In this document: positions 21,798 through 61,435 of the stretch, piece by piece
How positions within the stretch are numbered: the first letter of the stretch is position 1
How the letters are laid out: every line of letters begins with the position of its first letter
Origin: Candidatus Moraniibacteriota bacterium
GTDB lineage: Bacteria > Patescibacteriota > Minisyncoccia > Moranbacterales > GCA-2747515
Assembly: GCA_942490825.1 (NCBI GenBank)
Contig: CALNYG010000004.1
Coordinates: forward strand, 52,888 to 116,887
Direction: 5' to 3'
Length of the DNA stretch: 64,000 bases
The notes under the pieces: generated by a model
Told to the model about the DNA's origin: nothing
The model's database searches: none
The model's input: the letters and a program-made list of their open reading frames with translations, nothing else
Program-made: the position numbers and the translations under genes

Positions 21798-22487
21798 TTA
21801 CCTTATACTTTCCCTTACTTCTTCCCAAACCAATTCACTAATTTGCCCTTTCGATAACAACTCATCCCCAATCACACACTTAACATCAATCCAATTACCA
21901 CTTTCCTTAACTAAATTCAAAGCACTCCTTTTAGCATTCTGTAAATGCTTCAAATCACTCTCATGAGCATCTTTCTTGCCATTCAAATATTTTTTCTTCT
22001 CCTTTGCACTTTTCTTTTCTAAAAGTTTTAATGAAAAACTTAAAGGCACATTCAAAAAAATAATCACATCAGGTCGAGGAATCTTAAAAACCTCAAACTC
22101 CAGCTTATCCAACCATTTCAAAAACTCTCGCCTTTTTTTCGCATCCAAAATTTTACCACCTTGATGAATTTGATTAGAATTGGCATAACGATCACCGATC
22201 ACAATATATCCTTTTTCTAACCATTTTTTAATCTGCTCACTCGACTCGAATCTATCCACCGCATATAAAACCGACGCAATCTTTGGATCCAATTTTGCAA
22301 AATCTCCATATTCACCAGATAAACATTCACCAATAAACTTTCCAAAAAAATTATTTTCATACTGTGGAAAATCAATTGTCTTTACTTTTTTTCCTTCACT
22401 TTTTATTTTTTTAATTAACAAATCTGTCTGAGTTTTCTTCCCACAACCATCAGTTCCTTCGAAAACAATAAATTTTCCTTTTTTCAT
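21798..22487 (-). CDS. tmk: thymidylate kinase
   Basis: FIVFEGTDGCGKKTQ P-loop and a DRY-like GDRYANS motif. Confidence 0.9.
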   Translation of the reverse strand: MKKGKFIVFEGTDGCGKKTQTDLLIKKIKSEGKKVKTIDFPQYENNFFGKFIGECLSGEYGDFAKLDPKIASVLYAVDRFESSEQIKKWLEKGYIVIGDRYANSNQIHQGGKILDAKKRREFLKWLDKLEFEVFKIPRPDVIIFLNVPLSFSLKLLEKKSAKEKKKYLNGKKDAHESDLKHLQNAKRSALNLVKESGNWIDVKCVIGDELLSKGQISELVWEEVRESIR

Positions 22488-22516
22488 ATTTGATACAAAT
22501 TTACAAATTACACACT

Positions 22517-22930
22517 TTACAAAACCTTTTTAAAAAATCCCGTATCACAAATCTCAAAACCCAAACTTTGATACAATTTTCTAGCAGATGTTCGTGATGA
22601 ATTACTAGTCAATGTAATTTGCCGTAAATTATTTTCCTCAGCAACTTCAATAAGTTTATTCATAATCATTCTGCCCAAGCCCTGTCCTCGATAATTTTCA
22701 TCAATAATAACATCCTCAACAACCCCTGTTAACCCTTTAACTGGACCCTGATAAAATGCCAGAGTTGCAGAACCAATAATCTCACCTTTGTCATTTTCCA
22801 AAACATGACAATGACATCTTTCGTCATCTATTATTGCATTAGAATTAATCAAAATTTTTCTACCTGCAAGATCCTGAAAAAGTTTATTCAAAACATTTTT
22901 ATCTTTAATTTCAAATGGTCTAATTTTCAT
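22517..22930 (-). CDS. GNAT family N-acetyltransferase
   Basis: YRGQGLGRMIMNKLIE acetyl-CoA binding motif. Confidence 0.8.
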   Translation of the reverse strand: MKIRPFEIKDKNVLNKLFQDLAGRKILINSNAIIDDERCHCHVLENDKGEIIGSATLAFYQGPVKGLTGVVEDVIIDENYRGQGLGRMIMNKLIEVAEENNLRQITLTSNSSRTSARKLYQSLGFEICDTGFFKKVL

Positions 22931-22960
22931 CTTGTTATTTCTAAAAATTTATATTCAAAA

Positions 22961-24313
22961 TTATTTTTTCTCAACAATATCATGTTCACCTCTTTTAACA
23001 TCAAATTGATTTGGCTCATCATCCTGATGAATAACCAATCCATCTTTTTCAAAAAGTTCTTTCAAACTATCAATCATCTTTAACGCCTGTTCAACTAAAG
23101 TCGGATGAACAAAACGAGTCGATCGCAACTCCGCCAAATAAACCAAAGCCTTCAAATCACCAACAACTCGACATGGAACTCTATAACCCATCGCAATATA
23201 ATATTGTTTAACTTCCTTAGAAATATCCAAATTTTTAATTTTATCTTCCTGACTTGCAATTAATTTTTCCGCTTTTTTTCTAACATCTTCTGGCAATTCA
23301 TCTAAATACCATTCATGAAATCCGTGATCAAAAGTTAGCAAAGGCATTCTCTGAATTACCGCTCGATGACGTTGTAAATCACGATATGAACCAAAGTCTA
23401 AAAGAAATTCATAACCAACAACACCACATTCACCAATTGTTTGAGGCAATTCAGTTTTAAATGGTCGAGTCTTCAAAAATTCTTCATAATCTTTCAAAAT
23501 ATTTCTTTCAACATTATCATATAAAAGCTCAAAATCTTTCGCTTTATCATTTTCATAATAATAACTTTCTTGCATCCACTTTTTATTATAATTTTCAGTA
23601 TTTGGAAAACGCTCATGACCAAAAGATTCCGGAAGAGCTTTTTCTAAAGCCTTTTCAGTTTTTTCAGCAATTTCTTTAACTTCTTCTAATGGATGATGTC
23701 GTAAAAGCATCATTTCATCAGCAAACTGACGCAAATTCATTCGCCAAGCTAAATTAGTCGTAGCTCCTGCTGGCAAAAAAGATCGAGTAATATCAAAAGC
23801 TCGAGCCGCAATCGCCTTTTCGTAAATTTTTTCGTTTTCATTTTCACCGCAAGAAAACTGTTTTTTCAAATGTTCTTTTACAGGCTCTTGAGCTTCTAAA
23901 TAAAATTTCCGCCAGTTTTCTAAAATCTCTTCTCCTTCCTTATTTTCCAAAGGATTTGAAAACTTTTGCTTAGAAAAATCAATATATCGAGTTGATGCTT
24001 CCTGTCCAGAATAAAGACGCCAATCCTGAATTGCCTTCGCCGCCAACATAGAAACACCTTCAACAAAAACTGTCACACTTCCGCAATCTCCAATCGACTT
24101 ATGTCCATAACCCACGTAAAATTGCTCCATGAAATTTTTTGCTCCTCTTTTTTTTAAAACTTCTAAATGATGCTTTATTCCTCCTGTTGAACGTGAATGT
24201 AATGCCTGTAACATCGCCTCCGCCTGTGAATCAATCTTCGCTTCATTGTTTAAAACCAAAACAAAACCCCCTTGAGATAATTTTTCAACAGAGTGTTTTT
24301 CTAAAATGCTCAT
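22961..24313 (-). CDS. thyX: long-form ThyX-like FAD-dependent thymidylate synthase homolog
   Basis: QEASTRYIDF (SxRY-like) in the N-terminal half and LQRHRAVIQ (RHR) in the C-terminal half. At 450 aa it is about twice a canonical ThyX. Confidence 0.65.
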   Translation of the reverse strand: MSILEKHSVEKLSQGGFVLVLNNEAKIDSQAEAMLQALHSRSTGGIKHHLEVLKKRGAKNFMEQFYVGYGHKSIGDCGSVTVFVEGVSMLAAKAIQDWRLYSGQEASTRYIDFSKQKFSNPLENKEGEEILENWRKFYLEAQEPVKEHLKKQFSCGENENEKIYEKAIAARAFDITRSFLPAGATTNLAWRMNLRQFADEMMLLRHHPLEEVKEIAEKTEKALEKALPESFGHERFPNTENYNKKWMQESYYYENDKAKDFELLYDNVERNILKDYEEFLKTRPFKTELPQTIGECGVVGYEFLLDFGSYRDLQRHRAVIQRMPLLTFDHGFHEWYLDELPEDVRKKAEKLIASQEDKIKNLDISKEVKQYYIAMGYRVPCRVVGDLKALVYLAELRSTRFVHPTLVEQALKMIDSLKELFEKDGLVIHQDDEPNQFDVKRGEHDIVEKK

Positions 24314-24441
24314 TTATGTAAATTTTAATAAATTAAAATCCCCTTTATTTTTACATTTTACCATAATATCTTAAAAGTTAAAAAACAAAAAAACGTAATA
24401 AATTACGTTTTTCTTTATAGTTTCTAAAAAATTAAGTATTA

Positions 24442-24999
24442 TTAATCAATAATTTTTTCTACTACTCTATCAACATTTTCATACAATTTTTTAATCGTTC
24501 CGTGATTAATAATTGTGTGATCTGCAATAGCAATCGGACCACCTTGTTCTAAATTCTCTATCTGCCGTCTATCTCTAATTTCCAATTCCTCTTTAGTCAA
24601 AGGACGATCTTTCCTTTCTCCAATTCTCCTAATTCTTTCATCAGGTGAAACATAAATAGCAATCGTATGCAAATCCTCTCCAAAAGCCTCCCGCAGAATT
24701 AAATACTCAGTCCACATATACAAACTCTCCACCAAGATAAACTCGTTATTTTCTTTAAGTTTATTTAATTTTTTAACAACTTCCTTTGCGTAATGATCTT
24801 TACCAAATCTCACCCGTAAATCTTCACGAACTTCCTGCTCATTTTTTGGATTTACTTCCAAACCTCTCTTTTTAATTTCATCAAAAGTAACTTCACCAAA
24901 ATAAACCTTTGGCCAATTATGTTCTTCTATTAAATAATCTATAACCGCTGTTTTACCACTTCCCGGCATTCCCAACAAAGCAATTATTTTATTTTTCAT
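24442..24999 (-). CDS. P-loop nucleotide/nucleoside kinase-like protein
   Basis: LLGMPGSGKTAVIDYL Walker A, with the size and layout of small NMP kinases. Confidence 0.6.
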   Translation of the reverse strand: MKNKIIALLGMPGSGKTAVIDYLIEEHNWPKVYFGEVTFDEIKKRGLEVNPKNEQEVREDLRVRFGKDHYAKEVVKKLNKLKENNEFILVESLYMWTEYLILREAFGEDLHTIAIYVSPDERIRRIGERKDRPLTKEELEIRDRRQIENLEQGGPIAIADHTIINHGTIKKLYENVDRVVEKIID

Positions 25000-25010
25000 A
25001 TAATATAAAA

Positions 25011-25571
25011 TTAAAAATTTTTATGCATTAAAGATTCTTGTACTCCCTTGTCTCCATAATACTTGCTATTTAACTTTTTGTCACCATAAGATCGCTCACA
25101 AGGTGAAGATAAATATTCAAAAGCCATCTGTGCAATTGGCATTTTGTAATAAAGTTTAATCGGCAATGCTCCTGCGTTAAATAATTCTAAAGTCATTTTC
25201 AAAGAATTTCCAGGATCGAGATATCCTGCTGTCGTATGAATAATTAAACCTAATCGACCTAATGAACTTTTGCCCTCCAGTCGTCCAACCATTTTTTCTG
25301 AAACCCCAGTTTCTTCGTGAACTAAAGCTAAAGCAAAATCTCCAGGATGTAAAATAAACGATCCATTATTTTTGATAATAATTTTTTTCATCAAATCTTT
25401 AGCAGGTTTTTTAACATCAATAATATGATGTGCGTTTTTATCAAAAATCATAAATTCTTTATCCAAACGCAAATCAACACTTGCCGGTTGCAGTGCTTTT
25501 TTGCTGAATGGTTTTACAATAATGTTTTTGTTTCGAATTTCTTTTTGAATGTCTTTATCTGATAATGCCAT
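25011..25571 (-). CDS. dcd: dCTP deaminase (dUTPase superfamily)
   Basis: SSLGRLGLIIHTTAGYLDPGNSLKMTLELFN and a C-terminal YYGDKG. Confidence 0.85.
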   Translation of the reverse strand: MALSDKDIQKEIRNKNIIVKPFSKKALQPASVDLRLDKEFMIFDKNAHHIIDVKKPAKDLMKKIIIKNNGSFILHPGDFALALVHEETGVSEKMVGRLEGKSSLGRLGLIIHTTAGYLDPGNSLKMTLELFNAGALPIKLYYKMPIAQMAFEYLSSPCERSYGDKKLNSKYYGDKGVQESLMHKNF

Positions 25572-25638
25572 AAATTTAAACTAGGAATTAATTATATACC
25601 ACTCTTATTATGCTTTATTTTTTTGTTTTTGAAAAGGC

Positions 25639-25667
25639 TTGACAAGATGATGATGATGTAGGATATA
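25639..25667 (+). promoter_or_regulatory. sigma70-type promoter candidate
   Basis: TTGACA, a 17-nt spacer, then GATATA. It lies ~125 nt upstream of the 25793 ATG. Confidence 0.45.
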
Positions 25668-25792
25668 GAGTCATAGTTAGAAATCTGATTGTGATTAGTT
25701 TCTTAAAAAAATTAAGAAAAATGTAGTTTTCAAGCATTTAATTTGAAAAATAATTAAATCAATGTCCGCAAATTCAATCAAGGAGCAAAAAA

Positions 25793-26095
25793 ATGGAAGC
25801 GAACAATGAAAAATTTCACTGGTTTTATATACCTTATGAAATTTTAGTGAATAACCAGCCTTATAGTGCTGGAAACATCGAACTTGGTTTTAAAAACTTT
25901 AAACCAACAATGAAAGAGGGCATTTGGGCAAAAAAAGTGATTATAGATGGCATATATCGAGATATGCTCAAAGGAAAAATCGCAGACCCAAAAGTCAGCA
26001 AAAACCAAATTGATATAAAGTTTGGAATTACCAAGTACATCGGACATCAAGCAAAAAGCGAGTACGAACAAGAATTACTTACTACGCAACCTTGA
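25793..26095 (+). CDS. 100-aa protein, unknown function
   Basis: AAGGAG lies 8 nt upstream of the ATG. Flanked by a candidate promoter and a terminator. Confidence 0.6.
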   Translation: MEANNEKFHWFYIPYEILVNNQPYSAGNIELGFKNFKPTMKEGIWAKKVIIDGIYRDMLKGKIADPKVSKNQIDIKFGITKYIGHQAKSEYEQELLTTQP

Positions 26096-26186
26096 AAACT
26101 GTTGGACTTCTCAAGTAACACTCGAGAAGTCCCAGCAACTAAAAATTTCAAACTTCAAGCTTTAGAATTTTTTGAGCTGGAATTTT

Positions 26187-26217
26187 AAAAAGCTATCTTT
26201 TTGTAGATAGCTTTTTT
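26187..26217. terminator. bidirectional intrinsic terminator
   Basis: aaaaagctatct-ttttgt-agatagcttttt. Confidence 0.7.
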
Positions 26218-26228
26218 ATTTTCCAAAT

Positions 26229-26789
26229 TTAATCTTTCAAAATTTCTTCCATTGCTTTATCAACCTCAGTCAAAAGATGATCCATAGTTGTTTCATTCTT
26301 AATAGCAAAGTCAGCTTTAGAACCAATTTCAGGAACCGCTCTTTCAGTTTCAGCAGTTGACTCAAAGTTTTGAAAATCTTCAAAACTTTGTTGATCATCT
26401 GCTTTTTCTCCTCGATTATATGCCCTCTGCCAACGCAACTTCTGATCAGCTGTAATATAAATTACATAACTATGCTCAAAAGATCTAACAAATTCATAAT
26501 CACTAGGCATTCTTAATCCATTAATACACATCACACCTTCATCATGCTGATCAATAAATCTTCTAATTCCTAAATGTAAAATATCTTCACCAAAACGCTC
26601 TTTAAGAACTTGATAAAACCAATTTTGATCAGACTTTTTAGGATTTTCAAAGAAAAACTTCAAGGCTCTCTTCATTGGCAAACTAAATCGAAGATCATGA
26701 GTACCATATTTTCTTTTAAGATAATGAGCCACAGTATCCTTTCCGCTACCAGTTTCTCCCACTAAACCAATAACAATTTTTTTATTCAT
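26229..26789 (-). CDS. dNMP kinase-like P-loop protein
   Basis: GLVGETGSGKDTVAHYL (GxxGSGKDT, as in phage-type dNMP kinases). Confidence 0.55.
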   Translation of the reverse strand: MNKKIVIGLVGETGSGKDTVAHYLKRKYGTHDLRFSLPMKRALKFFFENPKKSDQNWFYQVLKERFGEDILHLGIRRFIDQHDEGVMCINGLRMPSDYEFVRSFEHSYVIYITADQKLRWQRAYNRGEKADDQQSFEDFQNFESTAETERAVPEIGSKADFAIKNETTMDHLLTEVDKAMEEILKD

Positions 26790-36174: not shown

Positions 36175-37454
36175 CTTTGGGCAAAGCTAAGTATTGAAAT
36201 TTGTTAAATTCTATGCTTAAATATTAAGTTATTTTAATAATTTAATATTTTAAAAATGCAAAAAAAAGAGATTAAAAAAATATTCAATTTAGAAGGATAT
36301 ATTTTAGATAAATTTGAAGAAAAAAATGATAAAATAATTTTACATTGTCATTTACAAAAGAATTCATTTAAATTAAAAAATGAGGTAAGTAAAAAAATTA
36401 ATCAAAAAAGAAATAGAATAATTGCTCATTCTATGTTTGAAAATAAAAAAGTTTTTATAGCTATTACTCAAAGAAGATTTTATTTTTCTAAACATAAAAA
36501 GAAACTTTGGGAATCTTTACCTCAAGTTAAAAAAGGGCAACAAATGAGCACAGCTTTTAAAAAAACTCTGTCATAGAATTAAGAGAAACCACATATAGCG
36601 GACTAGCTAGATCTAGACAGATAAGCATTATGTCGGCTCTGAGAATGATTGATGAAATGGTAAATACTTCATTAATTTGGGATAAATCTATTCAAAGAAT
36701 TGGAATGGATGGCAAAGGAGTTAGCAAAAGAAAACAAGTTTTTAACATTACTAATTTAATTGATAATGAGGTGATAGGTGTTCTACCAAATTTATCACAA
36801 AAAGAATTGCTGAAAGAATTATTAAAAATTGATTTAAAATTTAGATTAGCAGTTAAAGAAGTATGTATTGATATGGACTCTTTTTTTCCAGCTATTATTA
36901 AAGAATGTTTTCCTAATGCGGTTATTGTGATTGATCATTTTCATGTAATTCAGTGGGCTGTCTTTTTATTAAAAGAACAAAAAGTTTTCCAAGATATCAA
37001 CAATGAATCTTATAAAATAAATCAATTACTGATGATACCTACACACAAATTAACAATTGAAGAATTTAATAAATTAGAAAAAGTTTTTGTTAAAGTTCCT
37101 AAGTTAAAACAAAGTTGGAAAATAATTCATCAACTCAGAAAAGTATATTGGAAAAATAACAGAAAAGAAGCTCAAAAACAATTAAAATATGTCATCAGTC
37201 TTTGTAAAACTTCAGAATCAAAATATATGAAAGATTTGGCTAATACATTAACAAGATGGTTTGATGAAATATTAAATTATTATTTATCTAAAACAACTAA
37301 TGCTTATACTGAAGGAATTCATAATCATTTTGAAAGAATTAAAAGGAATCATTTTGGGATTAGGAATGTTGAACGTTTTTGTAAAAGATTATTATTTTGT
37401 ATTCTTCCGATGACAATTTTCTTAAATTTAGTTGCCCAAAGATGTTAAAGAGCC
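36162..37454 (+). mobile_element. ISL3-family insertion sequence
   Basis: Perfect 23-bp terminal inverted repeats ggctctttaacatctttgggcaa. Flanking repeats are actaaaca and gctaaaca. Length 1293 bp. Confidence 0.85.
36256..37448 (+). CDS. ISL3-family transposase, read through a -1 shift at an A7 run
   Basis: ORF1 is 36256..36576 and ORF2 is open from 36561 in the -1 frame. The A7 run is at 36559-36565. DMDSFFPAIIKECFPNAVIVIDHFHV is an ISL3 DDE signature. Confidence 0.7.
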
Positions 37455-44402: not shown

Positions 44403-45110
44403 CTATTCCAAAATAAATTTCTCCAATTCTTTCTTCTCCTTCAAATACAAGGCATTTTTTTCAATAAAATCTTTATAATCCTTTAGATCATAATCAAACT
44501 GCTCTAAAATAACATCTTTATCACATAACATTCCATTTCTTTTTCCAAGATAATCTAAAAGACTAGAATATTTCCAATCTTCATTTTTATTTCCATGAAT
44601 GAAATGATTTTGATTTACATAAGCAGATAGATACAAAAGATATTCATTTGAATCAATGTGAATTGACTTGAATTTTCCTTGAAAAAGTGAGCCTGAACGT
44701 TTGTGTTTTTTGTTAAAATACATCGTGTAAGAAGTTCCTAATTTCTGCATAAATCTTTCTACACCCTTATCTGCGTTTTGTTTCAAAATAAAATGATAAT
44801 GATTTGGATTTAAACAATATGCAACAAATTCAACAAGTTTATTCCTATTCTTAAGTTGTTCTTTGAAATTATTTTCAAACACTCCAAGGTTCGACCTTCG
44901 GGGATCCGAAGGTCGAACCTTTTCACGTTGATAATCTCTATAAAGTTGCATCAATCCATTGCTTTCATCATTCAACAAATTCATATTCAAGATAAATCTC
45001 TTATAATCATCCTCATCCATAAAAACGTTCTTTTTATCAACGCCTCGATTATAAATATGATAAAATTCATAGTTTGCGAATTGCGTTTTTCTCATAAAAA
45101 AATTAAACAA
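44403..45110 (-). CDS. Y1 HUH transposase (IS200-like / REP-associated RAYT-like)
   Basis: YHIYNRGVDKKNVF, the HUH motif NPNHYHFIL and the C-terminal Tyr region LSAYVNQNHF. Confidence 0.75.
   Translation of the reverse strand: MFNFFMRKTQFANYEFYHIYNRGVDKKNVFMDEDDYKRFILNMNLLNDESNGLMQLYRDYQREKVRPSDPRRSNLGVFENNFKEQLKNRNKLVEFVAYCLNPNHYHFILKQNADKGVERFMQKLGTSYTMYFNKKHKRSGSLFQGKFKSIHIDSNEYLLYLSAYVNQNHFIHGNKNEDWKYSSLLDYLGKRNGMLCDKDVILEQFDYDLKDYKDFIEKNALYLKEKKELEKFILE
44886..44921. repeat. family C 36-nt perfect palindrome inside the Y1 transposase gene
   Basis: aaggttcgaccttcgg-ggat-ccgaaggtcgaacctt, translated as KVRPSDPRRSNL. Confidence 0.9.
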
Positions 45111-45115
45111 TAATC

Positions 45116-48097
45116 TTAGCTCTGCAAAATCCTCAACAACTCTACATATTCCTTCGTCCGCTGATCAACTTTAATATCCCTTTCTAAAAAATCCCCAGAA
45201 AGAATATCCTTCGCAAATAAATTAATTTCACCCTTCAAAATATCCACATCATCCTGCGTAACCTCAATAATTTCCTGCTCATACTCCCCACTCTTTTTAC
45301 TTCGCTCCACAAAATCCAAAACACCACAATTCATTTTATATTTACCATCCTGATAACTATCCAATAACAATTTATAAAAAACAACCTGACGCTTTAACGA
45401 CTCTTTCTCGCTTTTACTTTTTTCACTCCACGACTTTCCCGTCTTATAATCAATAACTCGAACGCCATCATTTTCTTCAAATTCAATTTTATCAATATTA
45501 CCCGTTAAAAAAATTTCCTCTCCGGAATCCAATTTAAAAGGGATCTCTTTAATGGACTTTTCAGTTTCTACATTCAAAACAAAATCCTGAGAATAATTAT
45601 CATAATAATCAATTAAGTTTTTTTCACCTTGCGTCAAAATTGAATCATAATCTTCCTTGGGAATGTAAGCCGCTTCCACTGACTCATGAAAAATATTAAT
45701 CAAATCTTCCTTTGATAAAAATTCTTTTTTCTTAGCTGATTGAGAAAAATATTGTTCCAAAGAACCATGAACAACATTTCCATAAATAAGCGGTTTCCTC
45801 TGAACACTTGGCAAACAAACTATTTTTCTAAAAAAATAAAGTAAAGATGAATCAAAGTAATTATTTAAAGCACTAACTGACAATGGCGTATTTAAAAACT
45901 TTTCACGAATATAATCAATTTTTTTGAAAGATTTTACATTACTAATTCTCTGCACAAAACTAACATCAACCTTTTCTTCTTCGGGTTTTAATTTAATAGA
46001 TTGATTGTCAATTATATTTTCATCCAATTCAGAAATAAAAAGCGAAGGAGATTTCTCCCGACCGTTCAAATCAAACCCAGAATAAGTAATTGTAATATTT
46101 TTCTTTGCTCGAGTTAATGCCACATAAAAAAGTCGTCGTTCATCCTCAACATCTCCCTGCACCGAATTAACTGGCAATTGAAAAGAAGAACGTTTCCGTT
46201 TTCCGCCCCATAATCCATGAACTGCGTTTGTAATATAAACATCATCAAATTCTAAACCTTTTGAACTATGTGCTGACATTAAATTAACACCACTTACTTC
46301 CAACGGAACTGTAGTTTCCAAAGATAAATTATAAGTAGCACTCAAATCTAAATAATCAATAAAGTCTTCCAAGGAATAATCATTATCATTTCCAACTTGA
46401 GACTTAACTTCACCAAAAATTCTTTCCAATTTAGCTATCAAAAAAACATGGTCTTTTTTATCTAGAATATGTTTTAAAAAGTTACTTTCTCTTACTGAAT
46501 TTTCAAAAAATTCCATAAAAGAAATATTCTCACTTTTTTCTTTTTGTTTTAATAAGAAATTTGAAAAATTGATCAAACTTTCCAAATCTTTAAAATTCTT
46601 TTTTTTCAATAATTCTTTGTTAGAAATTAAATCAAACAATACAGTCTTTCTCGAAGAATGATTAAATAAATCTAAAAGTAAAATTGCATCGCTACTATTT
46701 AAATTCAAAAAATCAAAAAAGATAACTTTTCCTAACACTTCCGAATTTCGCGGATTATAAATCGCTCTAATTAATAATAAAAGTTTTTTAATTTCTTTAT
46801 CTTCCAAAACATTCAATTTTGAAGCAACAATAAAAGGTATTTGCATTTTTTCAAAAACTTCTTGAACAAATGGTAAATTATTATGCTCACGATACATCAC
46901 CGCAATATCAGAAGGTTCAGTTCCCTTCTCAATTTTTTTCAAAATATCTTGAGCAATAAAAATTAATTCATCTTTATACGTCGGCAATTCTCGCACTCGA
47001 TTTTCTGTATTTTTTAAATCAAAAAAAGCCGTCAATTTTTTATGATCATCACCATTTTCACTTTTTTCAATTAAGCTCTGGGAAATATCCAAAATAGCTT
47101 GCGTACTCCGATAATTATCAATCAAGTTAATTATTTTAACATTTGCAAACTTATTTTTAAAATGAAGAAAATTTTCAACATTTGCCCCTTGAAAACGATA
47201 GATTGCCTGCTTGTCGTCTCCCACTGTAAAAAGATTTGGCGTATCAATTAAATCAATCAAAGCCGAAATAATTCGATTCTGCCCCTCATTCGTGTCTTGG
47301 TGTTCATCCACTAAAATATATTGATATTGTTCCTGCAAAATTGATAAAAGTTCATCATTATTTTCCATAGCTTCCACCACAGATAAAATCATATCAGAAT
47401 AATCATATAATTTTCCCTCTTTCATTTTTTCCTGATATTCTGCATAAACAACTTGCAATTCCAAATTTTTCTCAATCGGTTTTAAAACTTGTGGCTTCAG
47501 GTCTCCTTTTTTAAATTTTTTCGTCGCTCGTTTATAATAAGAATCTTCATCGGCAATAATATTTTTTTTCTGCTCGTCTATTTTTTTAATGAAAATTTCT
47601 GGATTTATTCCTTCTCGCTTTAATTCATCGATTGCTCCACGAATTCCCCGAACGTAATGCGATTCACTAGCAAAAGTTTTTAAATGTGAAAAATCATTTT
47701 CTCTTAAAATTTCTTCGATAATTTGTAAGCATTCAACATCAGTCGCCACTGAGGAATAGGCTAAATCTGGAAAATAATCGGGATAATTTTTAATTTGTTC
47801 CTCGGCAAAACTGTGGAATGTAAAGATATTTACTCGATAAGCTAATTCACTTCCGATAAATTCGGCAAGTCTTTTTTTCATGGCGTGAACTCCGGCATTG
47901 GTAAAAGTTAAAGCTAAAATGTTTTCTGGCTCGATTTCTGGTTCGGCTTTTTTTAGGATGTTGGCAATGCGTAAAGTTAGAATTTGGGTTTTTCCTGTTC
48001 CGGGACCTGCTACTACAACTACTGGACCTTCGATGGTATCGACTGCTTCTTTTTGTGCAGGATTTAGCATGTCATATTTTTCTTGAAATTCATTCAT
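45116..48097 (-). CDS. UvrD/PcrA-type helicase fused to a C-terminal PD-(D/E)xK nuclease
   Basis: AGPGTGKTQ Walker A and VDEHQDTN. The C-terminus has GNIDKIEF..VIDYKTGK and RQVVFYKLL (RecB-nuclease-like). Confidence 0.85.
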   Translation of the reverse strand: MNEFQEKYDMLNPAQKEAVDTIEGPVVVVAGPGTGKTQILTLRIANILKKAEPEIEPENILALTFTNAGVHAMKKRLAEFIGSELAYRVNIFTFHSFAEEQIKNYPDYFPDLAYSSVATDVECLQIIEEILRENDFSHLKTFASESHYVRGIRGAIDELKREGINPEIFIKKIDEQKKNIIADEDSYYKRATKKFKKGDLKPQVLKPIEKNLELQVVYAEYQEKMKEGKLYDYSDMILSVVEAMENNDELLSILQEQYQYILVDEHQDTNEGQNRIISALIDLIDTPNLFTVGDDKQAIYRFQGANVENFLHFKNKFANVKIINLIDNYRSTQAILDISQSLIEKSENGDDHKKLTAFFDLKNTENRVRELPTYKDELIFIAQDILKKIEKGTEPSDIAVMYREHNNLPFVQEVFEKMQIPFIVASKLNVLEDKEIKKLLLLIRAIYNPRNSEVLGKVIFFDFLNLNSSDAILLLDLFNHSSRKTVLFDLISNKELLKKKNFKDLESLINFSNFLLKQKEKSENISFMEFFENSVRESNFLKHILDKKDHVFLIAKLERIFGEVKSQVGNDNDYSLEDFIDYLDLSATYNLSLETTVPLEVSGVNLMSAHSSKGLEFDDVYITNAVHGLWGGKRKRSSFQLPVNSVQGDVEDERRLFYVALTRAKKNITITYSGFDLNGREKSPSLFISELDENIIDNQSIKLKPEEEKVDVSFVQRISNVKSFKKIDYIREKFLNTPLSVSALNNYFDSSLLYFFRKIVCLPSVQRKPLIYGNVVHGSLEQYFSQSAKKKEFLSKEDLINIFHESVEAAYIPKEDYDSILTQGEKNLIDYYDNYSQDFVLNVETEKSIKEIPFKLDSGEEIFLTGNIDKIEFEENDGVRVIDYKTGKSWSEKSKSEKESLKRQVVFYKLLLDSYQDGKYKMNCGVLDFVERSKKSGEYEQEIIEVTQDDVDILKGEINLFAKDILSGDFLERDIKVDQRTKEYVELLRILQS

Positions 48098-48959: not shown

Positions 48960-49214
48960 TTAATTTTTTAGTTGCTTTTTTACCCATCTTAATATACTAA
49001 CGTTACTAACTTTCAGTATTCTTCCTATTGATCTAAATCCTAGTCCCTCTAAATACATTTCAATTGCTTTTTTCTTAATTTCTTTAGGTTTTCCTCTTTT
49101 TGTAAATCTAGAAAAGTTATAGCTACATTCTTTACATAGATATCTTTGTTTTTTATTTACTTTACCATTTTTAACATAATTCTTATTATTGCAATGAGGG
49201 CATTTAATTTTCAT
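48960..49214 (-). CDS. insA: IS1 InsA-like Zn-finger/HTH protein
   Basis: CPHCNNKNYVKNGKVNKKQRYLCKEC plus the helix-turn-helix GFRSIGRILKVSNVSILRW. It ends just after an A AAA AAG heptamer. Confidence 0.75.
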   Translation of the reverse strand: MKIKCPHCNNKNYVKNGKVNKKQRYLCKECSYNFSRFTKRGKPKEIKKKAIEMYLEGLGFRSIGRILKVSNVSILRWVKKQLKN

Positions 49215-50710
49215 TTTTTTGTTTTTAGGTATTTAATTACCTATTCATTTTACATTATCTATAGTTTGGTAGCAATACCAAAAAACTTAAGAGAAAATCT
49301 AGATGATTTATCCATGGATAAATTCATAGGAAAAACAATAGAAACCTTAATGCTAATAGAAAGAGATGAGTATTTAGAAGATATTAATAAAACTAAAAAA
49401 GATAAAGGAAATGGATCATACGGAAGAGCTATGAATTCATTATCAAAAAACTCATTACTTGTTCATATTCCAAGAACTAGAACAGGATTATTCTCTCCAG
49501 CAACACTAGAACTTTTAAAAATTAACAGAGAAAAAGTAGATGAAATAGCTTTATCTTTATATAAAAAAGGAATGACTTCCAATGACATTAATGAATTTTT
49601 AAATGAAATTTTTGAAGAAAACATGTCTCCTGCTAAGATATCTAATTTAGCAAAAGTATTTAATAAATTTAGAATAGCTTGGCAAAATTCCAAATTAGAA
49701 AAACATTACAAAGTTGTTTATGGAGATGTAATTTTCATTACTGTGCGAAGAGGTGATGAATACGCTAAGGAAGGTGTATTTATTGCTTTTGGAGTAAGAG
49801 AAGATAATAGACGAGAATTGCTTTGTTTAAGTCAAAATCCAACCGAATCAGCAGAATTTTGGAAAGAATTATTGCAAGATTTAAGAGAAGAAAGAGGTGT
49901 TCAACAAATAGATTTATTTGTAGCTGATGGATTAAAAAATTTAGAAAATGTATTTTTAGAAATATATCCCCAAGGAGAATTTCAAAAGTGCGTAGTTCAT
50001 AAACAAAGAAATATTTTAAACAAAACAAGACCGAAAGATAAAAAAGAAATAGGAGAAGATTTAAAAGAAATATTTAATAATTTTGAAGAAAATGATACAA
50101 TTGAAAAAGCCTTGAAAAAAGTAAATAATTTTTTAGAAAAATGGAAAACAAAATATCCAAATTTTAAAAATCATTTTACAGAAATTGAATATTATTTTAC
50201 ATATATTAAATTCAATCCTCGAGTAAGAAGAATGATTTATACAACTAATTCAATTGAAAATTTGAATAGGCAAATTAGAAAAACTACAAAGAATAAATTA
50301 TCATTTGAATCTCCCGAAAGATTATTGGACTATGTATTTATGGTTATTAAGGAGTTTGAAGAAAAAAATTATATGAAATATCCTGTTTCTAATTTTAAAT
50401 ATTTTAATAAAATTAAGAAAGGTTAAATGGGCGATGGACACACTTTGTTGAAGGGTCCCCCTGCACTCGCAGATGAAAGGATCGAGGTGCCCAATGAAGA
50501 TCTTGCATCTACTATCAGCGATGTCTTAAATACTGCGCAGGGTAATACTGGAGTGGTTACAGTCAATTATGCGTATGGAGATGGAGAATCTGAAACTTCT
50601 GTCATACGGATAAAACCAACCATCAGGGGAACGGCTGTGAGTGTCACACCAAGTAGTTCCACACTAACTCCTAGCCTAGATGATTGATTAACAACTCGTC
50701 ACATTGTGGC

Positions 50711-51569: not shown

Positions 51570-53552
51570 ATGCAACAAGAACCCCAAAAATACCTAATTT
51601 CACTAATACCACTAACCAGAATCTCTCTAACCAGAGATCCATTTTTTTATTACCTTTCAGAAAGTCCGATACCAACAGGATCATTGTGTGAAGCACCTTT
51701 TGGTCGTAGAAAAATAAAAGGAATAGTATTAGAAAGTAAAACAGATTTTCAAAGAGCTGGCGGAATGAGATTAAAAAAAATTAGCAAAATTTTAAATGAA
51801 AAATTTTTAACCGAAGAACAATTGCGACTAGCACAATTTATTTCAGAATATTATCTATGCCCTCTGGGAATTGTTTTAAAACACTTTATACCTACTCAAG
51901 CCAAATCCAGAAAAAAAGAAATAGAATCTGAACAATTATTCACAAAAATACAAAAAACCAATCTATCAAATCAAGAAAATATCGATAAAATTATCGATTC
52001 ACAAAACACTTCTAAATCATTTGTTCTACAAGTTGAACCAAATTCTGACAAAGAAAATTTTGTTTTAAATTTAATTAATGATTTTGCAAATAAAAAAGAA
52101 GATGAACAAATCTTATATCTATTTCCCGAAGTTTCCCAAACGCTAAAAATAGAACAAGACTTACTCAATCACTTTCCAAAAGAAAATGTAGCCTTACTTC
52201 ACAGTAAAATAACCAAAGGAAAATTCTTTGAAAATTGGGAAAAAATTAGAAGTGGTCAAGCTAAAATAATTATTGGAACACGAACAGCTGTTTTTGCACC
52301 ATTTAAAAATTTATCTTTAATAATCACTGATAATCACACTGACATTTCTTACAAGCAATGGGATATGAATCCTCGATATAACGCTCGCACTCTAGTTTAT
52401 AAATTAAGCGAATTATTCAATTGTCCCAATTTAAATATTTCTACCTTTCCTCGAACTTCTGATTATCATCACTCAATTAAAAATACAGATGGTTTAACTT
52501 TTTTAACTTTAAAAAATAAAAGTAGATCTCCGATAAAAATACATATCATCGACATGAAAAAAGAACGTTGGAATAAACGTTATTCTCCCATATCTCAAGA
52601 TCTCGAATTTAAATTACGCAACGTTTTAAATAAAAAACAACAGTCCCTACTATTTATAAATCGACAAGGATTGTCATCTTTTTCAATTTGTTTAAAATGC
52701 AAGTTACCTTTAAAATGTCCACAATGTCAAAGAGCTTTGGTTGCAAAGAAAGATAAAGCTTTTCATTGTTTACACTGTAATTATTCAACTGAGAAATCTC
52801 CAAAATGTAAAAATTGTTCATCAACAAAATTTAAAAATATTGGAATTGGCACAGAAAAAATTGAATATATTTTACAAAAAACTTTTCCCAAAGCTAGAAT
52901 CGCACGAGTAGATCAATCAATTGCTAAAAAATTTAGCGAAATAAAAAAAATTCATACTCGTTTTTCTCAAGGAAAAATTGATATTTTAATCGGAACTCAA
53001 ATGATAATGGAAGGTTGGAATAGTCCGAATCTAAAACTCACCTCAATTCTTGATATGGATAATTTAACTAGTCTGCCTGAATACGACGCTCAGGAAAAAT
53101 CTGTAAATTTTCTACTAAATCTTTATAATAAAGTCGCGAAAAATAATGGCGAAATACTAATTCAAACATTTAACGAATTCAATCCAATCTTCGAAGCTGT
53201 TAAAAAATCAGATGTAAAAGAAATATACACCGATGAATTAGAGAATAGAAAAGCACTTTCCTATCCTCCTTTTGCACGATTGATTAAACTTATATATCGA
53301 TCTTCAAATCAAGAAGAAAATAAAAATATAACTCAAAGTTTATACAAAAAAATAAAAGAGACTACTAAAGAAAACAAAAATATAATTATCACTCCCCCAC
53401 ACACCCCTCTTTTAAATAAAATCCGAACTCAATATCGTGAACAAATTATTATCAAATGCAAAAAAAATGATCTCCCTAAAGAATTAAAAAGTGAGCTAAA
53501 AAAACTAGATCACAAATGGATTATAGACATTGATCCTATCAATTTAACTTAA
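51570..53552 (+). CDS. priA: PriA-like primosomal protein with degenerate ATPase motifs
   Basis: Colinear with PriA, including the Cys-rich insertion CLKCKLPLKCPQC..CLHCNY..CKNC and ILIGTQMIMEGWN. Walker A, DEEH and motif VI positions are not conserved. Confidence 0.8.
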   Translation: MQQEPQKYLISLIPLTRISLTRDPFFYYLSESPIPTGSLCEAPFGRRKIKGIVLESKTDFQRAGGMRLKKISKILNEKFLTEEQLRLAQFISEYYLCPLGIVLKHFIPTQAKSRKKEIESEQLFTKIQKTNLSNQENIDKIIDSQNTSKSFVLQVEPNSDKENFVLNLINDFANKKEDEQILYLFPEVSQTLKIEQDLLNHFPKENVALLHSKITKGKFFENWEKIRSGQAKIIIGTRTAVFAPFKNLSLIITDNHTDISYKQWDMNPRYNARTLVYKLSELFNCPNLNISTFPRTSDYHHSIKNTDGLTFLTLKNKSRSPIKIHIIDMKKERWNKRYSPISQDLEFKLRNVLNKKQQSLLFINRQGLSSFSICLKCKLPLKCPQCQRALVAKKDKAFHCLHCNYSTEKSPKCKNCSSTKFKNIGIGTEKIEYILQKTFPKARIARVDQSIAKKFSEIKKIHTRFSQGKIDILIGTQMIMEGWNSPNLKLTSILDMDNLTSLPEYDAQEKSVNFLLNLYNKVAKNNGEILIQTFNEFNPIFEAVKKSDVKEIYTDELENRKALSYPPFARLIKLIYRSSNQEENKNITQSLYKKIKETTKENKNIIITPPHTPLLNKIRTQYREQIIIKCKKNDLPKELKSELKKLDHKWIIDIDPINLT

Positions 53553-53587: not shown

Positions 53588-53604
53588 GTGCTCGCCGCAC
53601 GGGC
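53588..53604 (-). repeat. GC-rich 17-mer
   Basis: Exact copy, 35 nt after the priA stop. Confidence 0.9.
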
Positions 53605-53673
53605 TTTTAATTTTTTAAATAAAAAATTATTAAACTTTAGTTAGACTTCTCAAAAAAATATTATTCAATAATC

Positions 53674-56645: not shown

Positions 56646-59102
56646 TTAACCCATATCCTCTTTCATAAAATAAATACGATCCCCTCGATGAATATTACCT
56701 GCAATAATCTTTTTAGCTAAAGAGTCAGAAATATTTTTTTGAATATAATGAATCAATGATCTCGCTCCAAAATCCTGATCAAAACCACAATTAATAATTT
56801 TTTTAACAACAGCCTTATCAAAAGAAATTTCTATATGTTTTTCTTTTTTAAATTGTTCAGTAAATTTATTTAACATAATTTCAACAATTTGAGGAAGTTC
56901 TTTTTCTGTCAAAGGATGGAAAATTACTACCTCATCAAAACGTCCAATAAATTCTGGACGGAAATCATTCTGTTCAACAATGTTATCAATAATCTCTTTC
57001 TTAGCGTTATTTAGATTAACGCCCTGATCAACTAACCTCTTAATATGCAAAGCACCGGAGTTAGATGTGGCAATAATAATCATAGTATTAAAATTAACTC
57101 GCCTACCAAAAGCATCATGTACAAAACCCTCATCTAAAATTTGCAAGAAGATGTCTAAGACTTTTGAATTAGCTTTTTCAATTTCATCAAGTAGCAGTAA
57201 AGTATATGGGTGTTCTTTAGCTGCCTTAATCAAACTTCCCTGTTGATTATTCTCTTTAGACCCTATTAATCTATCTAAAGCATCTTCGCCTTGAAATTCG
57301 CTCATATCCATTCTGATCATCTTATTTTCATCTCCAAAATACTGATCAGCTAATACTTTAGCTGTCTCAGTTTTACCGACACCAGTCGGACCTAAAAATA
57401 AAAAACTTCCCGCTGGCTTTTTCGGATTACCCACCCCACTTCTCATTCTTCTCACTGCTGAAACCACGGCATTAACCGCCATCTCTTGACCAATAACGCG
57501 TTGACGAAAATAATCTTCAAGCGAAAGTAATTTCTCCCGCTCCTCATTAGATACTCTTCCAACTGGCACTCCTGTTTTTTGACTGGTAAAAATATTAACT
57601 GTTTCAGCTGTAATAAATCTTTGCGAACCACTTTTCTTCCAAAAACTTAAAACTTCATTAGCTAAATTAATAGCTCGTAAAGGAAGTGGTGAATCATTTG
57701 TATAACGCTCTGAATTAATAATAATCTGTCGTAAGGCTTGAAAGGTAAAAGGAGTGTGTTTATCGCCATAAAAATAATTAAATAAAACTTTTATTGTTTC
57801 ATCTTCATTCATCTCATCAACATGAATTACTTCAAAATTTCTCATTAAAGATTTATTCACTTCAATTTTTTCACCAAAAGAATATTCAGTTGTTACACCA
57901 ATAATTCTAACAGTTGGCAGTGGCGCGTATTTATTAATAAAACTAGCAAATGAAAAATTATCTTTTCCCCTTTCCAAATACTTATCAATATTATCAATAA
58001 TCAAAATCACATTACCAGCATAAGCCGCTTCATGAAAGAGATTATGTACAAAATTTTCTGGATCGATACCTAAATCTCTAGCCTGAGAAATTGCTTCACT
58101 AAAATCACATTTAAGAACTCGACTATTCATAAAATTGGATCCATCATATTCACCATTGCGAATTCGACGTGCAAATTCATGCATTAACATATGACGACCT
58201 GATCCTGGTACACCTGTAATAACCACGTTATTCTCTTGCATTCGACTTAAAACAGTTTCTAAAATACTGATTTCTTCCTTATATCCAACAAAAGGAAATT
58301 TAGAATAAGGGCTATTATCAAATTTTGAAAAATCATGAGCTAATTTATTTAATTGACTAGTGAAACCAAACTGCCAATATAAACCGATCGGTCTAATTTT
58401 CATCAATTCTTTTTTTAAGAAAGTTCTTTTCTTGTCTTCACGTTCTAATTGTCTATCAATTTCCCAAGCGATAATTTTTTCACACTCCTCCACTGTTACA
58501 TCTAGTTCTATTAAGAACTTTTTAAATTCATTAAAGTTGCCCAAAACATTCTTTGGAACTTCATCTCTTTGCACACCTAGCCGCTCATATATTCGATAAA
58601 ACCATTTTAGCTTATTGAGTTGTGCAATATTCATTCGACGATATCGAATATGATTGAAAGTCTTAAATTTACTATAAATTATAATTAAAAATACTAATTG
58701 AAAAAATAAAATACTTAATCCAATATAAATCAAATTAGAGAAACAGAAAACCGTCGCTACAATAAAGATGCCTGTAAAAGTAAAATAAACAAAAATGATT
58801 AACAAACTAAAAATAAAAATTATAACAAAAAAAACCACTCCAACAGCTAAAACAATTAATCTCACAATCATCCCAACAAATCTTGAAAAAAGATTCCAAA
58901 TCAAGCGTTGCGCAGTTCGAGAAAAACTAAATCCTTGCCAATTTTTTAATGAAACATCTTTATGCCAAGAATAGAAAAGCGTCTTCAACAAAGTTTTCAT
59001 TGAAAAAAAGTGTGGAATAAATTCAAGCAAATTCATAAGTGCCTGAAAAAGATTTTTTAAACCATTAGAATAATACCAAGTAAAAAAAGTTTTTTTATGC
59101 AT
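56646..59102 (-). CDS. membrane-anchored Clp/Hsp100-like AAA+ protein (degenerate D1, intact D2)
   Basis: About 150 aa of N-terminal TM helices. D1 has GVPGSGRH and IIDNID. D2 has GPTGVGKTE and LLLDEIEKA. Confidence 0.75.
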   Translation of the reverse strand: MHKKTFFTWYYSNGLKNLFQALMNLLEFIPHFFSMKTLLKTLFYSWHKDVSLKNWQGFSFSRTAQRLIWNLFSRFVGMIVRLIVLAVGVVFFVIIFIFSLLIIFVYFTFTGIFIVATVFCFSNLIYIGLSILFFQLVFLIIIYSKFKTFNHIRYRRMNIAQLNKLKWFYRIYERLGVQRDEVPKNVLGNFNEFKKFLIELDVTVEECEKIIAWEIDRQLEREDKKRTFLKKELMKIRPIGLYWQFGFTSQLNKLAHDFSKFDNSPYSKFPFVGYKEEISILETVLSRMQENNVVITGVPGSGRHMLMHEFARRIRNGEYDGSNFMNSRVLKCDFSEAISQARDLGIDPENFVHNLFHEAAYAGNVILIIDNIDKYLERGKDNFSFASFINKYAPLPTVRIIGVTTEYSFGEKIEVNKSLMRNFEVIHVDEMNEDETIKVLFNYFYGDKHTPFTFQALRQIIINSERYTNDSPLPLRAINLANEVLSFWKKSGSQRFITAETVNIFTSQKTGVPVGRVSNEEREKLLSLEDYFRQRVIGQEMAVNAVVSAVRRMRSGVGNPKKPAGSFLFLGPTGVGKTETAKVLADQYFGDENKMIRMDMSEFQGEDALDRLIGSKENNQQGSLIKAAKEHPYTLLLLDEIEKANSKVLDIFLQILDEGFVHDAFGRRVNFNTMIIIATSNSGALHIKRLVDQGVNLNNAKKEIIDNIVEQNDFRPEFIGRFDEVVIFHPLTEKELPQIVEIMLNKFTEQFKKEKHIEISFDKAVVKKIINCGFDQDFGARSLIHYIQKNISDSLAKKIIAGNIHRGDRIYFMKEDMG

Positions 59103-60865: not shown

Positions 60866-61435
60866 ATGATTGGCTTTTTAAAAGGTAAAGTTATAATGAA
60901 AAAAAATAATAGTATAATTATTAACGTAAATAATGTTGGTTACAAAATTAACGTGAATGATTATATTTTTGAAAAAATTAATATCGAGCAAGAAATTTCA
61001 CTATATATTTACACTCATGTTCGTGAACAAGAAATTTCACTCTATGGTTTTTTAACTGAAAAAGATCAACAAATGTTTGAATTATTAATTTCTGTTTCTG
61101 GAATTGGACCGAAAGCTGCTTTGAAGTTATTATCAATTGCTGACATCAAATCAATTAAGACTGCTATTGTTAATAGAGATATTTCTATACTAACTCAAGT
61201 TTCTGGAGTTGGAAAGAAGACAGCTGAAAAAGTTGTAATTGAACTATCCGGAAAAGTAGATAGTATAGACATTGAAACTGATCCTGGTAATTCTGATGTT
61301 GACGTAATTAACGCTTTAAAATCAATGGGTTATTCCATTTCTGAATCTCGAGATGCGCTTGGTGAAGTTCCAAAAGATATCACTGACACTAGTGAACGAG
61401 TTCGATTAGCTTTAAAATTTATTGGAAAAAAATAA
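60866..61435 (+). CDS. ruvA: Holliday junction branch migration complex subunit RuvA
   Basis: MIGFLKGKV, the helix-hairpin-helix motifs VSGIGPKAALKLL and VSGVGKKTAEKV, and a C-terminal domain III. Confidence 0.9.
   Translation: MIGFLKGKVIMKKNNSIIINVNNVGYKINVNDYIFEKINIEQEISLYIYTHVREQEISLYGFLTEKDQQMFELLISVSGIGPKAALKLLSIADIKSIKTAIVNRDISILTQVSGVGKKTAEKVVIELSGKVDSIDIETDPGNSDVDVINALKSMGYSISESRDALGEVPKDITDTSERVRLALKFIGKK

Follow-up and report, generated by a model that had tools for sequence, protein, structure and literature searches.

PriA is the near-universal initiator of replication restart in bacteria. The 64-kb stretch of DNA analysed here (hereafter the window; from contig CALNYG010000004.1) carries a priA gene, and an initial annotation made from the letters of the window had described its product as a PriA homolog with all ATPase motifs degenerate, able to bind forks, unlikely to hydrolyse ATP, and acting as a scaffold in replication restart. 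The locus thus raises the question of whether this is a true PriA, whether its nucleotide site has really been lost, and what such a protein could do. Comparative evidence and experimental precedent in other bacteria support the scaffold proposal: judging from its residues, the window PriA is most probably a pseudohelicase, which keeps the fork-recognising surfaces and would be unable to bind or hydrolyse ATP, and so to translocate or unwind DNA.

Identity of the gene product and state of its ATP site

The source organism belongs to Candidatus Moraniibacteriota/Moranbacteria, within Patescibacteria (candidate phyla radiation, CPR). A protein identical to the window PriA (P0001) is recorded on a 182-kb NCBI contig, and the nearest named relatives are metagenome-assembled genomes labelled “Candidatus Moranbacteria/Moraniibacteriota”. 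The window protein scored 372.1 bits against the curated equivalog model TIGR00595 of NCBIfam (cut-off 230.35). The Pfam domains PriA_3primeBD, Helicase_C, and PriA_C exceeded their cut-offs, and DEAD scored under its own. The top sequence matches in PDB, obtained with phmmer, were the PriA proteins of Klebsiella pneumoniae and Escherichia coli (E~1e-54). The AlphaFold2 (AF2) model, computed with 119 homologs as input, had a mean predicted local distance difference test score (pLDDT) of 90.9 and a predicted template modelling score (pTM) of 0.89. Its best Foldseek match was the fork-bound E. coli PriA (8fak_H, TM 0.82/0.84), and all the next matches were also PriA proteins. The protein has two RecA-like lobes of superfamily 2 (SF2) type, with a cysteine-rich insertion (4 x CxxC) in lobe 2. 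By sequence and predicted fold, the open reading frame (ORF) unambiguously encodes a genuine full-length PriA, and the colinearity with PriA proposed in the initial annotation is borne out by the Pfam domains, TIGR00595, and the PDB matches.

To read the ATP site, we aligned with MAFFT the 120 best homologs and E. coli PriA from NC_000913, whose numbering is marked Ec below; two further sets of sequences were aligned in the same way. The three independent MAFFT alignments and the phmmer alignment gave the same picture of motif degeneration. Since the canonical GPxxSGKT, DEEQ/H, GSATP, GTQM, and QxxGRxxR are retained in about 109 of the 120 nearest homologs, the degeneration in the window protein is not a matter of chance. 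In what follows, group A comprises the window protein and P0002-P0005, and group B comprises P0006, P0007, P0008, P0010, and P0012.

In the former Walker A motif (P-loop), the substitutions are G224V, G227N, G229D (Asp160), and T231E (Glu162), and Ec K230 is kept as K161. The AF2 model places a strand at residues 150-155, a loop at 156-160, and a helix starting at K161, and the alignment has no indels in this stretch. Because no indel separates the strand from the helix, K161 corresponds to the P-loop Lys; it is invariant in all 10 proteins of groups A and B. The initial annotation had correctly called this motif degenerate, but its register was one residue off, so that it placed an Asp at the Lys position. 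A shift of one residue also affected motif II (Walker B), read there as a change from DEEH to TDNH (T253-H256): the motif is indeed degenerate, but it corresponds to DNHT, in which the Walker B Asp is retained (D254) and the catalytic Glu (Ec E321) is Asn255. These corrections of register change which catalytic residues count as lost, K161 and D254 being retained.

The other two changes reported earlier agree with our alignments, namely ISTFP in the place of GSATP and the absence of QxxGRxGR in motif VI. In the latter region, Q is replaced by N, G583 by N, and R584 by K, R587 is deleted or Lys, and the loop is shortened. A further loss, which the earlier list did not include, concerns the Q-motif Gln (Ec Q203), present in 100% of 109 canonical relatives and in group B, and missing from group A. 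The losses in motif Ia (positions of Ec G256/Q260/R264) are common to groups A and B. As a whole, the statement that all ATPase motifs are degenerate holds for motifs I, II, III, and VI, but not for motif IV, motif V, and the aromatic-rich loop, which are intact.

An intact counterpart of the degenerate motifs elsewhere in the protein, which the initial annotation had indicated as contrary to its proposal, was not found: a pattern scan of the whole window protein for GK[ST], [AG]x4GK[ST], DE.[HDQ], and G[RK]xx[RK] returned no match. The window protein thus lacks the intact GxGKT, DExH/Q, SAT, and QxxGRxGR of an active SF2 helicase. On the evidence of the alignments, its motifs Q, I, II, III, and VI are destroyed, with the loss of three P-loop Gly, the Mg2+-ligand Thr, the catalytic Glu, SAT, the adenine-reading Gln, and both arginine fingers.

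Conservation of the fork- and DNA-binding regions

Then, we evaluated how the losses are distributed along the protein. We took the 173 alignment columns conserved at 90% or more in the 109 canonical relatives and scored them in group A. The ATP-site motifs (Q, I, II, III, and VI) had lost 15 of 21 columns, versus 19/152 elsewhere (Fisher p=3e-8). Losses were 1/28 in the N-terminal 3'-end-binding and winged-helix region, 1/16 in the C-terminal domain, 3/23 in the cysteine-rich region (none of them among its eight Cys), and 5/36 in the DNA-contact motifs Ia, Ib, aromatic-rich loop, IV, and V. At the sequence level, this pattern is the signature of a protein that gave up ATP but not DNA or partners.

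The single elements agree with the counts. The 3'-end-binding domain keeps the equivalents of Ec F16, Y18, G29, and K61. In the aromatic-rich loop, which has a role in DNA binding and coupling in PriA (PMC5175346), D258, S260, K262, Q263, W264, and P268 do not vary among groups A and B and the canonical relatives. Throughout groups A and B, motif IV keeps N364, R365, Q366, and G367 unchanged; a role has been described for Ec R427/R428 (PMC13594977). A total of 40 positions are invariant across the 119 homologs, including all eight Cys of the cysteine-rich region, which also gives a weak match to Zn_ribbon_6. The features of the gene are listed in Table 1.

Table 1. Features of the priA gene and its product, in window positions; Ec, E. 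coli PriA numbering.
Feature	Residues	Positions	Strand	State and evidence
priA ORF	1-660	51570..53552	+	660 aa plus stop, ATG start; ATPase-degenerate PriA (probable pseudohelicase)
3'-end-binding domain	21-108	51630..51893	+	conserved; PF17764 E=7e-17, 61.4 bits vs cut-off 22.7
Former Q-motif region, TNLSN	130-134	51957..51971	+	Ec Q203 equivalent is Asn
Former Walker A / P-loop, VEPNSDKE	155-162 (Ec G224-T231)	52032..52055	+	residue map, alignments, AF2 geometry
Motif Ia region	186-197	52125..52160	+	PE kept; conserved T, Q, R lost
Former motif II / Walker B, DNHT	254-257 (Ec D320-H323)	52329..52340	+	residue map, phmmer alignment
Aromatic-rich loop region, DISYKQWDMNPRYNAR	258-273	52341..52388	+	conserved; column analysis
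Former motif III, ISTFP	290-294 (Ec GSATP, G355-P359)	52437..52451	+	alignments, residue map
Motif IV, FINRQG	362-367	52653..52670	+	single-stranded DNA-contacting Arg (Ec R427) kept
Cysteine-rich region, four CxxC pairs	C374, C377, C383, C386, C400, C403, C413, C416	52689..52817	+	intact
Motif V, GTQM	475-478 (Ec G538-M541)	52992..53003	+	intact; alignments
Former motif VI, NLYNKVAK	517-524 (Ec Q580-R587)	53118..53141	+	alignments, residue map
PriA C-terminal domain	567-656	53268..53537	+	conserved; PF18074 E=5e-13, 50.2 bits vs cut-off 26.9
Terminator-like hairpin plus T-run		53590..53614	+	38 nt past the priA stop; consensus match only

Selection on the gene

A gene that has lost so many conserved residues could also be a decaying pseudogene, or an artefact of assembly or annotation. 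The branches of groups A and B are longer than those of the canonical relatives (root-to-tip distance 2.0 versus 1.71+-0.05), and a transposase lies nearby, as would be expected in this case. However, the 660-aa frame is intact, its fold is predicted with confidence, and the GC content of priA (0.28) matches that of the window. To assess the selective pressure, we compared the DNA of four relatives from independent assemblies: P0002 (77% identical), P0003 (74%), P0004 (72%), and P0005 (54%). Their ORFs are all intact and carry the motif remnants seen in the window protein, although the assemblies are independent and from different samples.

The Nei-Gojobori dN/dS between the window gene and these relatives was 0.13-0.19, an approximate estimate as dS is ~1-2 and near saturation. 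RecA lobe 1, which contains the dead motifs I-III, had an omega of 0.12-0.14. By region, dN/dS was below 0.25 everywhere for window/P0002 and window/P0003, save for a 35-codon linker in window/P0002 (0.35). In the sole unsaturated pair, P0003/P0004 (dS 0.037), the former Walker A/motif II accounts for 3 of the 15 amino-acid differences (P157L, T253I, and D254A), which hints that these sites are now free to vary; with 15 substitutions, the pair is too small for inference per domain.

By this measure the window priA is under purifying selection in every region and is not a pseudogene, so the neutral evolution that the initial annotation had indicated, along with a second canonical priA, as a possible contrary finding is not what we observed. 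We rejected neutral drift on the basis of the dN/dS values and, considering also the invariant positions among the 119 homologs, we regard a pseudogene or artefact as extremely improbable.

Phylogeny and order of the losses

We reconstructed a neighbor-joining (NJ) tree from vectorised Kimura distances, after removal of the motif columns and with 100 bootstraps. Group A, group B, and the two together were each monophyletic in 100/100 bootstraps, and the sister group of A+B was canonical (P0016/30/35/40/59). The loss of the catalytic Walker A/B residues is therefore fixed in a clade nested among canonical PriA proteins and descended from them, as expected for a pseudohelicase.

The P-loop of group B reads ITNxSDKF, without the glycines and the Thr but with the Lys; the group also lacks the motif Ia residues and the second Arg finger. 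Q203, DEAH, SATP, Q580, and R584 (the first Arg finger) are retained. These residues make group B an intermediate, in which the P-loop is dead and DEAH and SATP are kept. The simplest history compatible with the alignment is that the ancestor of A+B lost the P-loop, the motif Ia residues, and the second Arg finger once, and that group A then lost the other ATP-site residues. Because the sister group B has remained at an intermediate stage of decay, the sequences reveal the order of the losses: the P-loop and the second Arg finger would have gone first, followed by the catalytic Glu, SAT, the Q motif, and the first Arg finger.

Among the other Moranbacteria-like proteins, P0013 (43% identical to the window protein) is a separate, partly degenerate PriA, with SSERT at Walker A, AEEEQ, ASTTP, and GRTGC. 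Its Walker A Lys->Arg is the change also found in Deinococcus-Thermus and in E. coli priA300.

Genomic context of priA and search for a second copy

In group B (loci L006:10001-11965 and L007:678-2642), priA lies 1.3 kb upstream of def-fmt. Using tblastn, we found the priA-def-fmt linkage in the canonical Moranbacteria loci and also in the degenerate loci L021, L018/19, those of Falkowbacteria, and L035/37. Because of this linkage, the degenerate genes of group B and of these loci can be placed at the orthologous priA site. Group A has a different arrangement, shared by the window, L003, and L005: an 85-aa ORF, priA, a 312-aa ORF, and an HtrA-like protease. Since the def-fmt linkage is lost in group A, the orthology of its PriA is based on phylogeny.

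This difference in context leaves room for another explanation, in which the window copy is a neofunctionalised or redundant paralog, employed in another DNA-binding role (e.g., as a fork-binding regulator or competitor), and a canonical priA lies elsewhere in the genome, for instance at the def-fmt locus. Beyond the unlinking of group A priA from def-fmt, unlike canonical and group B loci, a Mutator-family transposase is found 1.1 kb upstream of priA. A second canonical copy, with the window copy evolving neutrally, was also the other finding that the initial annotation had indicated as contrary to its proposal. Within the window, phmmer with two canonical Moranbacteria PriA proteins against all 205 six-frame ORFs of the 64 kb retrieved the window priA alone. 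A scan of species-representative genomes yielded 36 loci and matched no genome twice, including the group A genome GCA_023133275.1; it has low power, being based on the one generic pattern YKQWDMNP, and the genome of the window, inspected here over 64 kb, is outside that collection.

Against a paralog, groups A and B form one clade, and the B branch sits at the orthologous priA-def-fmt site. Furthermore, no other top-120 match was traceable to the group B contigs of 1.18 Mb and 1.29 Mb, and the fork-recognition elements are all under purifying selection, as for a working PriA. CPR genomes are of ~1 Mb and have little redundancy. We thus consider the paralog explanation unlikely and keep the pseudohelicase as the preferred one.

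Degenerate PriA proteins in Patescibacteria

The window PriA does not stand alone: degeneracy was seen in many Patescibacteria lineages. The P-loop is broken in more than half of the 36 PriA loci from species representatives of Patescibacteria. The broken forms include TER/SER/QER in Falkowbacteria (K->R) and HNLQSERH, SSPAPS, and xYNKAxx of the Paceibacterota type, and occur in L018/19, L021, L035/37, and L043. The sets of degenerate PriA proteins that we collected are L018, L019, L021, L023-L035, L037, L038, L040, L041, and L043, together with P0121-P0199 and a subset of P0222-P0361; the taxonomy of the clusters is taken from the named GTDB loci of the species-representative scan.

A homolog search started from the Paceibacterota type gave 79 clusters, every one degenerate. 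An exhaustive profile search, run over 1.84 billion cluster representatives, recovered 23,728 relatives; among the best 150 of them (50%-identity cluster representatives), 54 are without G-K-[ST] and 39 are without all four motifs, the motif-lacking proteins being all of the short form (620-720 aa). In a joint NJ tree of 237 sequences, 100 P-loop-less proteins fell in at least five all-degenerate clades, which is to be read as a rough lower bound on independent losses, as the samples are biased towards relatives of the queries and the trees are simple NJ; for the same reason, the frequencies given here are not prevalence. A+B grouped with canonical Moranbacteria, apart from the Paceibacterota type, in 45/50 bootstraps.

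Considering these results, we slightly favour the view that the loss of the PriA motor is a recurrent and possibly convergent trait of Patescibacteria, and not an oddity of Deinococcus-Thermus. In the open-access full text that we searched, no paper combined PriA with CPR, Patescibacteria, Parcubacteria, Saccharibacteria, or Moranbacteria.

The remnants of the ATP site follow a recurring pattern. Among the 100 degenerate sequences, Ec230 is K/R in 99/100, Ec320 is D in 94/100, and Ec229 is D/E in 70/100 (SDK, SER, TER); the counts are dominated by one large clade, and the pattern recurs in separate clades. Many degenerate lineages also keep D[DE]EH/Q, and the degree of decay varies. At the first Arg finger, Arg->Lys is found in group A and in the Paceibacterota-type clade.

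This retention could mean that the protein is still an active ATPase or helicase with a non-canonical site, in which Lys161, Asp254, and Lys521 (where the Arg finger stood) would suffice to hydrolyse ATP slowly. Coherently, the motif VI Arg->Lys is non-random in group A and the Paceibacterota-type clade, DEAH and SATP are under apparent constraint in group B, and earlier biochemical studies suggested that E. coli PriA carries a second nucleotide site, weaker than the first (PMC5778457). However, in the window protein the three P-loop Gly are gone, an acidic residue occupies the phosphate-binding Gly position, Thr231 (Mg2+) is Glu, Glu321 is Asn, and the Q-motif Gln and motif III are missing. 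In E. coli, a single K230R, K230A, or K230D substitution already abolishes activity (PMC5778457), and so do the milder changes of Deinococcus (PMC4504706). Moreover, the remnants vary widely by lineage, which is unexpected for a conserved alternative site. An active enzyme is, in our opinion, very unlikely. Under the pseudohelicase reading, the retained Lys/Asp pair may reflect a selected “locked-empty” conformation of the RecA lobes, and not simple decay.

A separate observation concerns the former motif VI of group A, LYNKVAKN, which is nearly identical to LYNKVSKN of distant Paceibacterota-type pseudohelicases (P0145/P0125/P0121). In a tree of the motif VI region, group A joined the Paceibacterota type in 88/100 bootstraps, falling to 42/100 without the motif columns. 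Mean identities were 0.33-0.34 between A and the Paceibacterota type and 0.38-0.42 between A and B. We considered recombination as the source of LYNKV and rejected it, although not rigorously, as the signal is confined to the motif columns and the identities are not in its favour. On the sequences, convergence is the likelier origin of the shared LYNKV.

Proposed mechanism and comparison with known PriA proteins

Three lines of previous work make an ATP-independent PriA plausible. The PriA of Deinococcus radiodurans has no ATPase or helicase activity, and it binds single-stranded DNA and forks (Kd ~215 and 109 nM) and also DnaB; degenerate motifs I and II were noted across the Deinococcus-Thermus PriA proteins (Lopper et al. 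2015, PMC4504706). A 2017 review described PriA helicase activity as conserved “except in Deinococcus” (PMC5778457). E. coli PriA K230R/A/D has no ATPase, helicase, or translocase activity and assembles primosomes in vitro; in vivo, it supports the PriA/PriB pathway and not the PriA/PriC pathway (PMC5778457, PMC13594977). Lastly, cryo-electron microscopy showed that forks are recognised through PriA contacts with all three arms, that with at least ~9 nt of single-stranded lagging template the cysteine-rich region rotates and encircles the strand, and that a duplex lagging arm needs unwinding first (PMC10175261, PMC13594977).

On this basis, we propose a mechanism for the window PriA. Sequence and predicted structure indicate a PriA fold with the 3'-end-binding domain, the aromatic-rich loop, motifs IV and V, the two-zinc cysteine-rich region, and the C-terminal domain, whereas the nucleotide site is dismantled, with an Asp at the Gly position of GK. 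By analogy with the E. coli structures and the ATPase-dead mutants, the protein would bind the three fork arms without ATP. The cysteine-rich region would then close round the single-stranded lagging-strand template (~9 nt or more in E. coli), and this closure would mark the site for DnaB reloading. More speculatively, DnaB might be recruited directly, as proposed for D. radiodurans, or via an adaptor, and forks with a duplex lagging arm might be opened by another enzyme or not be restarted at all. It is also conceivable that K161, D160, and D254 form an internal ion-pair network in the phosphate site, which would hold the empty site shut.

Several points weigh against this reading. Fork binding and the lack of ATPase activity are read from the residues of the window PriA. 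In the 64-kb window we saw no DnaB, DciA, or SSB, so that the DnaB-recruitment step has no local support, and tblastn found neither def nor fmt within the window or near the other priA genes of group A. The P-loop Lys and the Walker B Asp are kept in nearly all degenerate lineages, and could indicate a residual role of the site, for instance in coupling the lobes or in binding nucleotide or phosphate weakly. In group B, DEAH and SATP, as well as the Q-motif Gln and the first Arg finger, persist across an internal divergence of 54-74%. To these must be added the near-saturation of the dN/dS comparisons, the small size of the P0003/P0004 pair, and the possibility, improbable to us, of a second canonical priA in the source genome, seen here as 64 kb.

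Among the closest known systems is D. radiodurans PriA. The two share degenerate Walker A/B motifs in a conserved PriA architecture, a clade-wide loss, and a putative ATP-independent role in fork recognition and helicase recruitment. They differ in phylum and origin, the loss being independent, and the decay is further advanced in the window PriA. D. radiodurans PriA has Lys->Arg in the P-loop and poor matches to motifs I and II, whereas the window PriA keeps the Lys. The former has been assayed (no ATPase, no unwinding, binding to forks and DnaB), while the latter is known from its sequence.

The E. coli K230R/K230A/K230D mutants (priA300) also separate the scaffold from the motor. They are, however, single engineered substitutions in an otherwise canonical enzyme; these mutants depend on PriB and DnaT, and their function is impaired in the PriA/PriC pathway and when the lagging arm of the fork is duplex. 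PriB and DnaT are not known to occur outside some Proteobacteria.

Compared with canonical PriA (E. coli/K. pneumoniae; PDB 4nl4, 6dgd, 8fak), the window PriA shares the domain order and fold (3'-end-binding domain, RecA lobes, cysteine-rich region, and C-terminal domain), but it is ~70 residues shorter (660 vs 732 aa), as are other Patescibacteria PriA proteins, and lacks functional motifs Q, I, II, III, and VI. With the other degenerate proteins of the phylum (group B, Paceibacterota, Falkowbacteria, L018/19, L021, and P0013) it has in common the short form, the broken P-loop, a basic Ec230, and a usually acidic Ec229. In those proteins the Arg fingers are lost and many of the genes are in the priA-def-fmt locus; they form separate clades with different remnants.

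A pseudohelicase PriA is thus already known from Deinococcus and E. coli K230R, and the window case arose independently, in a different phylum, with motifs that have decayed further. The possible novelty lies in the frequency of ATPase-dead PriA among Patescibacteria. If recurrent loss is true, much of this group restarts replication with an ATP-independent PriA, and the loss of the motor would be common in ultrasmall, host-dependent Patescibacteria. This would imply that what is essential and conserved in PriA is the recognition of forks by their structure and the recruitment of the helicase, and that some life-styles can do without unwinding. Because ATPase-dead E. coli PriA is known to work, the basic view of restart is unchanged. 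These natural sequences could be used to separate the scaffold and motor functions of PriA. They also call for caution in annotation, since equivalog models label ATPase-degenerate proteins “replication restart helicase PriA”.

Other features of the window

The priA gene lies in a chromosomal stretch of 28-31% GC that is rich in housekeeping genes and encodes aminoacyl-tRNA synthetases, GatB, L1, NusG, RodA/FtsW, RuvA (60866-61435), and a UvrD-type helicase-nuclease; no tRNA gene was found in the 64 kb. Terminator-like sites in the region are 8, versus 1.5 expected.

The helicase-nuclease is a 993-aa ORF (45116-48097, -) with a UvrD/Rep-type SF1 helicase (intact AAA_19/UvrD) fused to a C-terminal PD-(D/E)XK nuclease (AddA/PcrA-like). 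It could be a candidate processor of forks or DNA ends that compensates for a motor-less PriA.

Three transposases, each of another family, are present in these 64 kb of a small CPR genome: ISL3 (DDE_Tnp_ISL3; 36630-37448, +), IS200-like Y1 (44403-45110, -), and the Mutator/IS256 one upstream of priA (49146-50426, +). An 86-aa ORF (50427-50687, +) begins one base past the stop of the latter; it is Gly/Thr/Ser-rich, matches no family, and may belong to the mobile element.

A nucleotide-salvage cluster (Tmk, Dcd, and kinases; 21798-26789) contains a ThyX-like ORF of 450 aa (22961-24313, -), in which the Thy1 domain covers residues 41-228 only and the C-terminal half has no family match. An 818-aa Clp/Hsp100-type ATPase (56646-59102, -) scores strongly in D2 only (AAA_2, ClpB_D2-small), with weak generic P-loop matches in D1. 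GC skew is negative in nearly all 2-kb bins, consistent with most genes being on the - strand, and priA is among the minority on the + strand.

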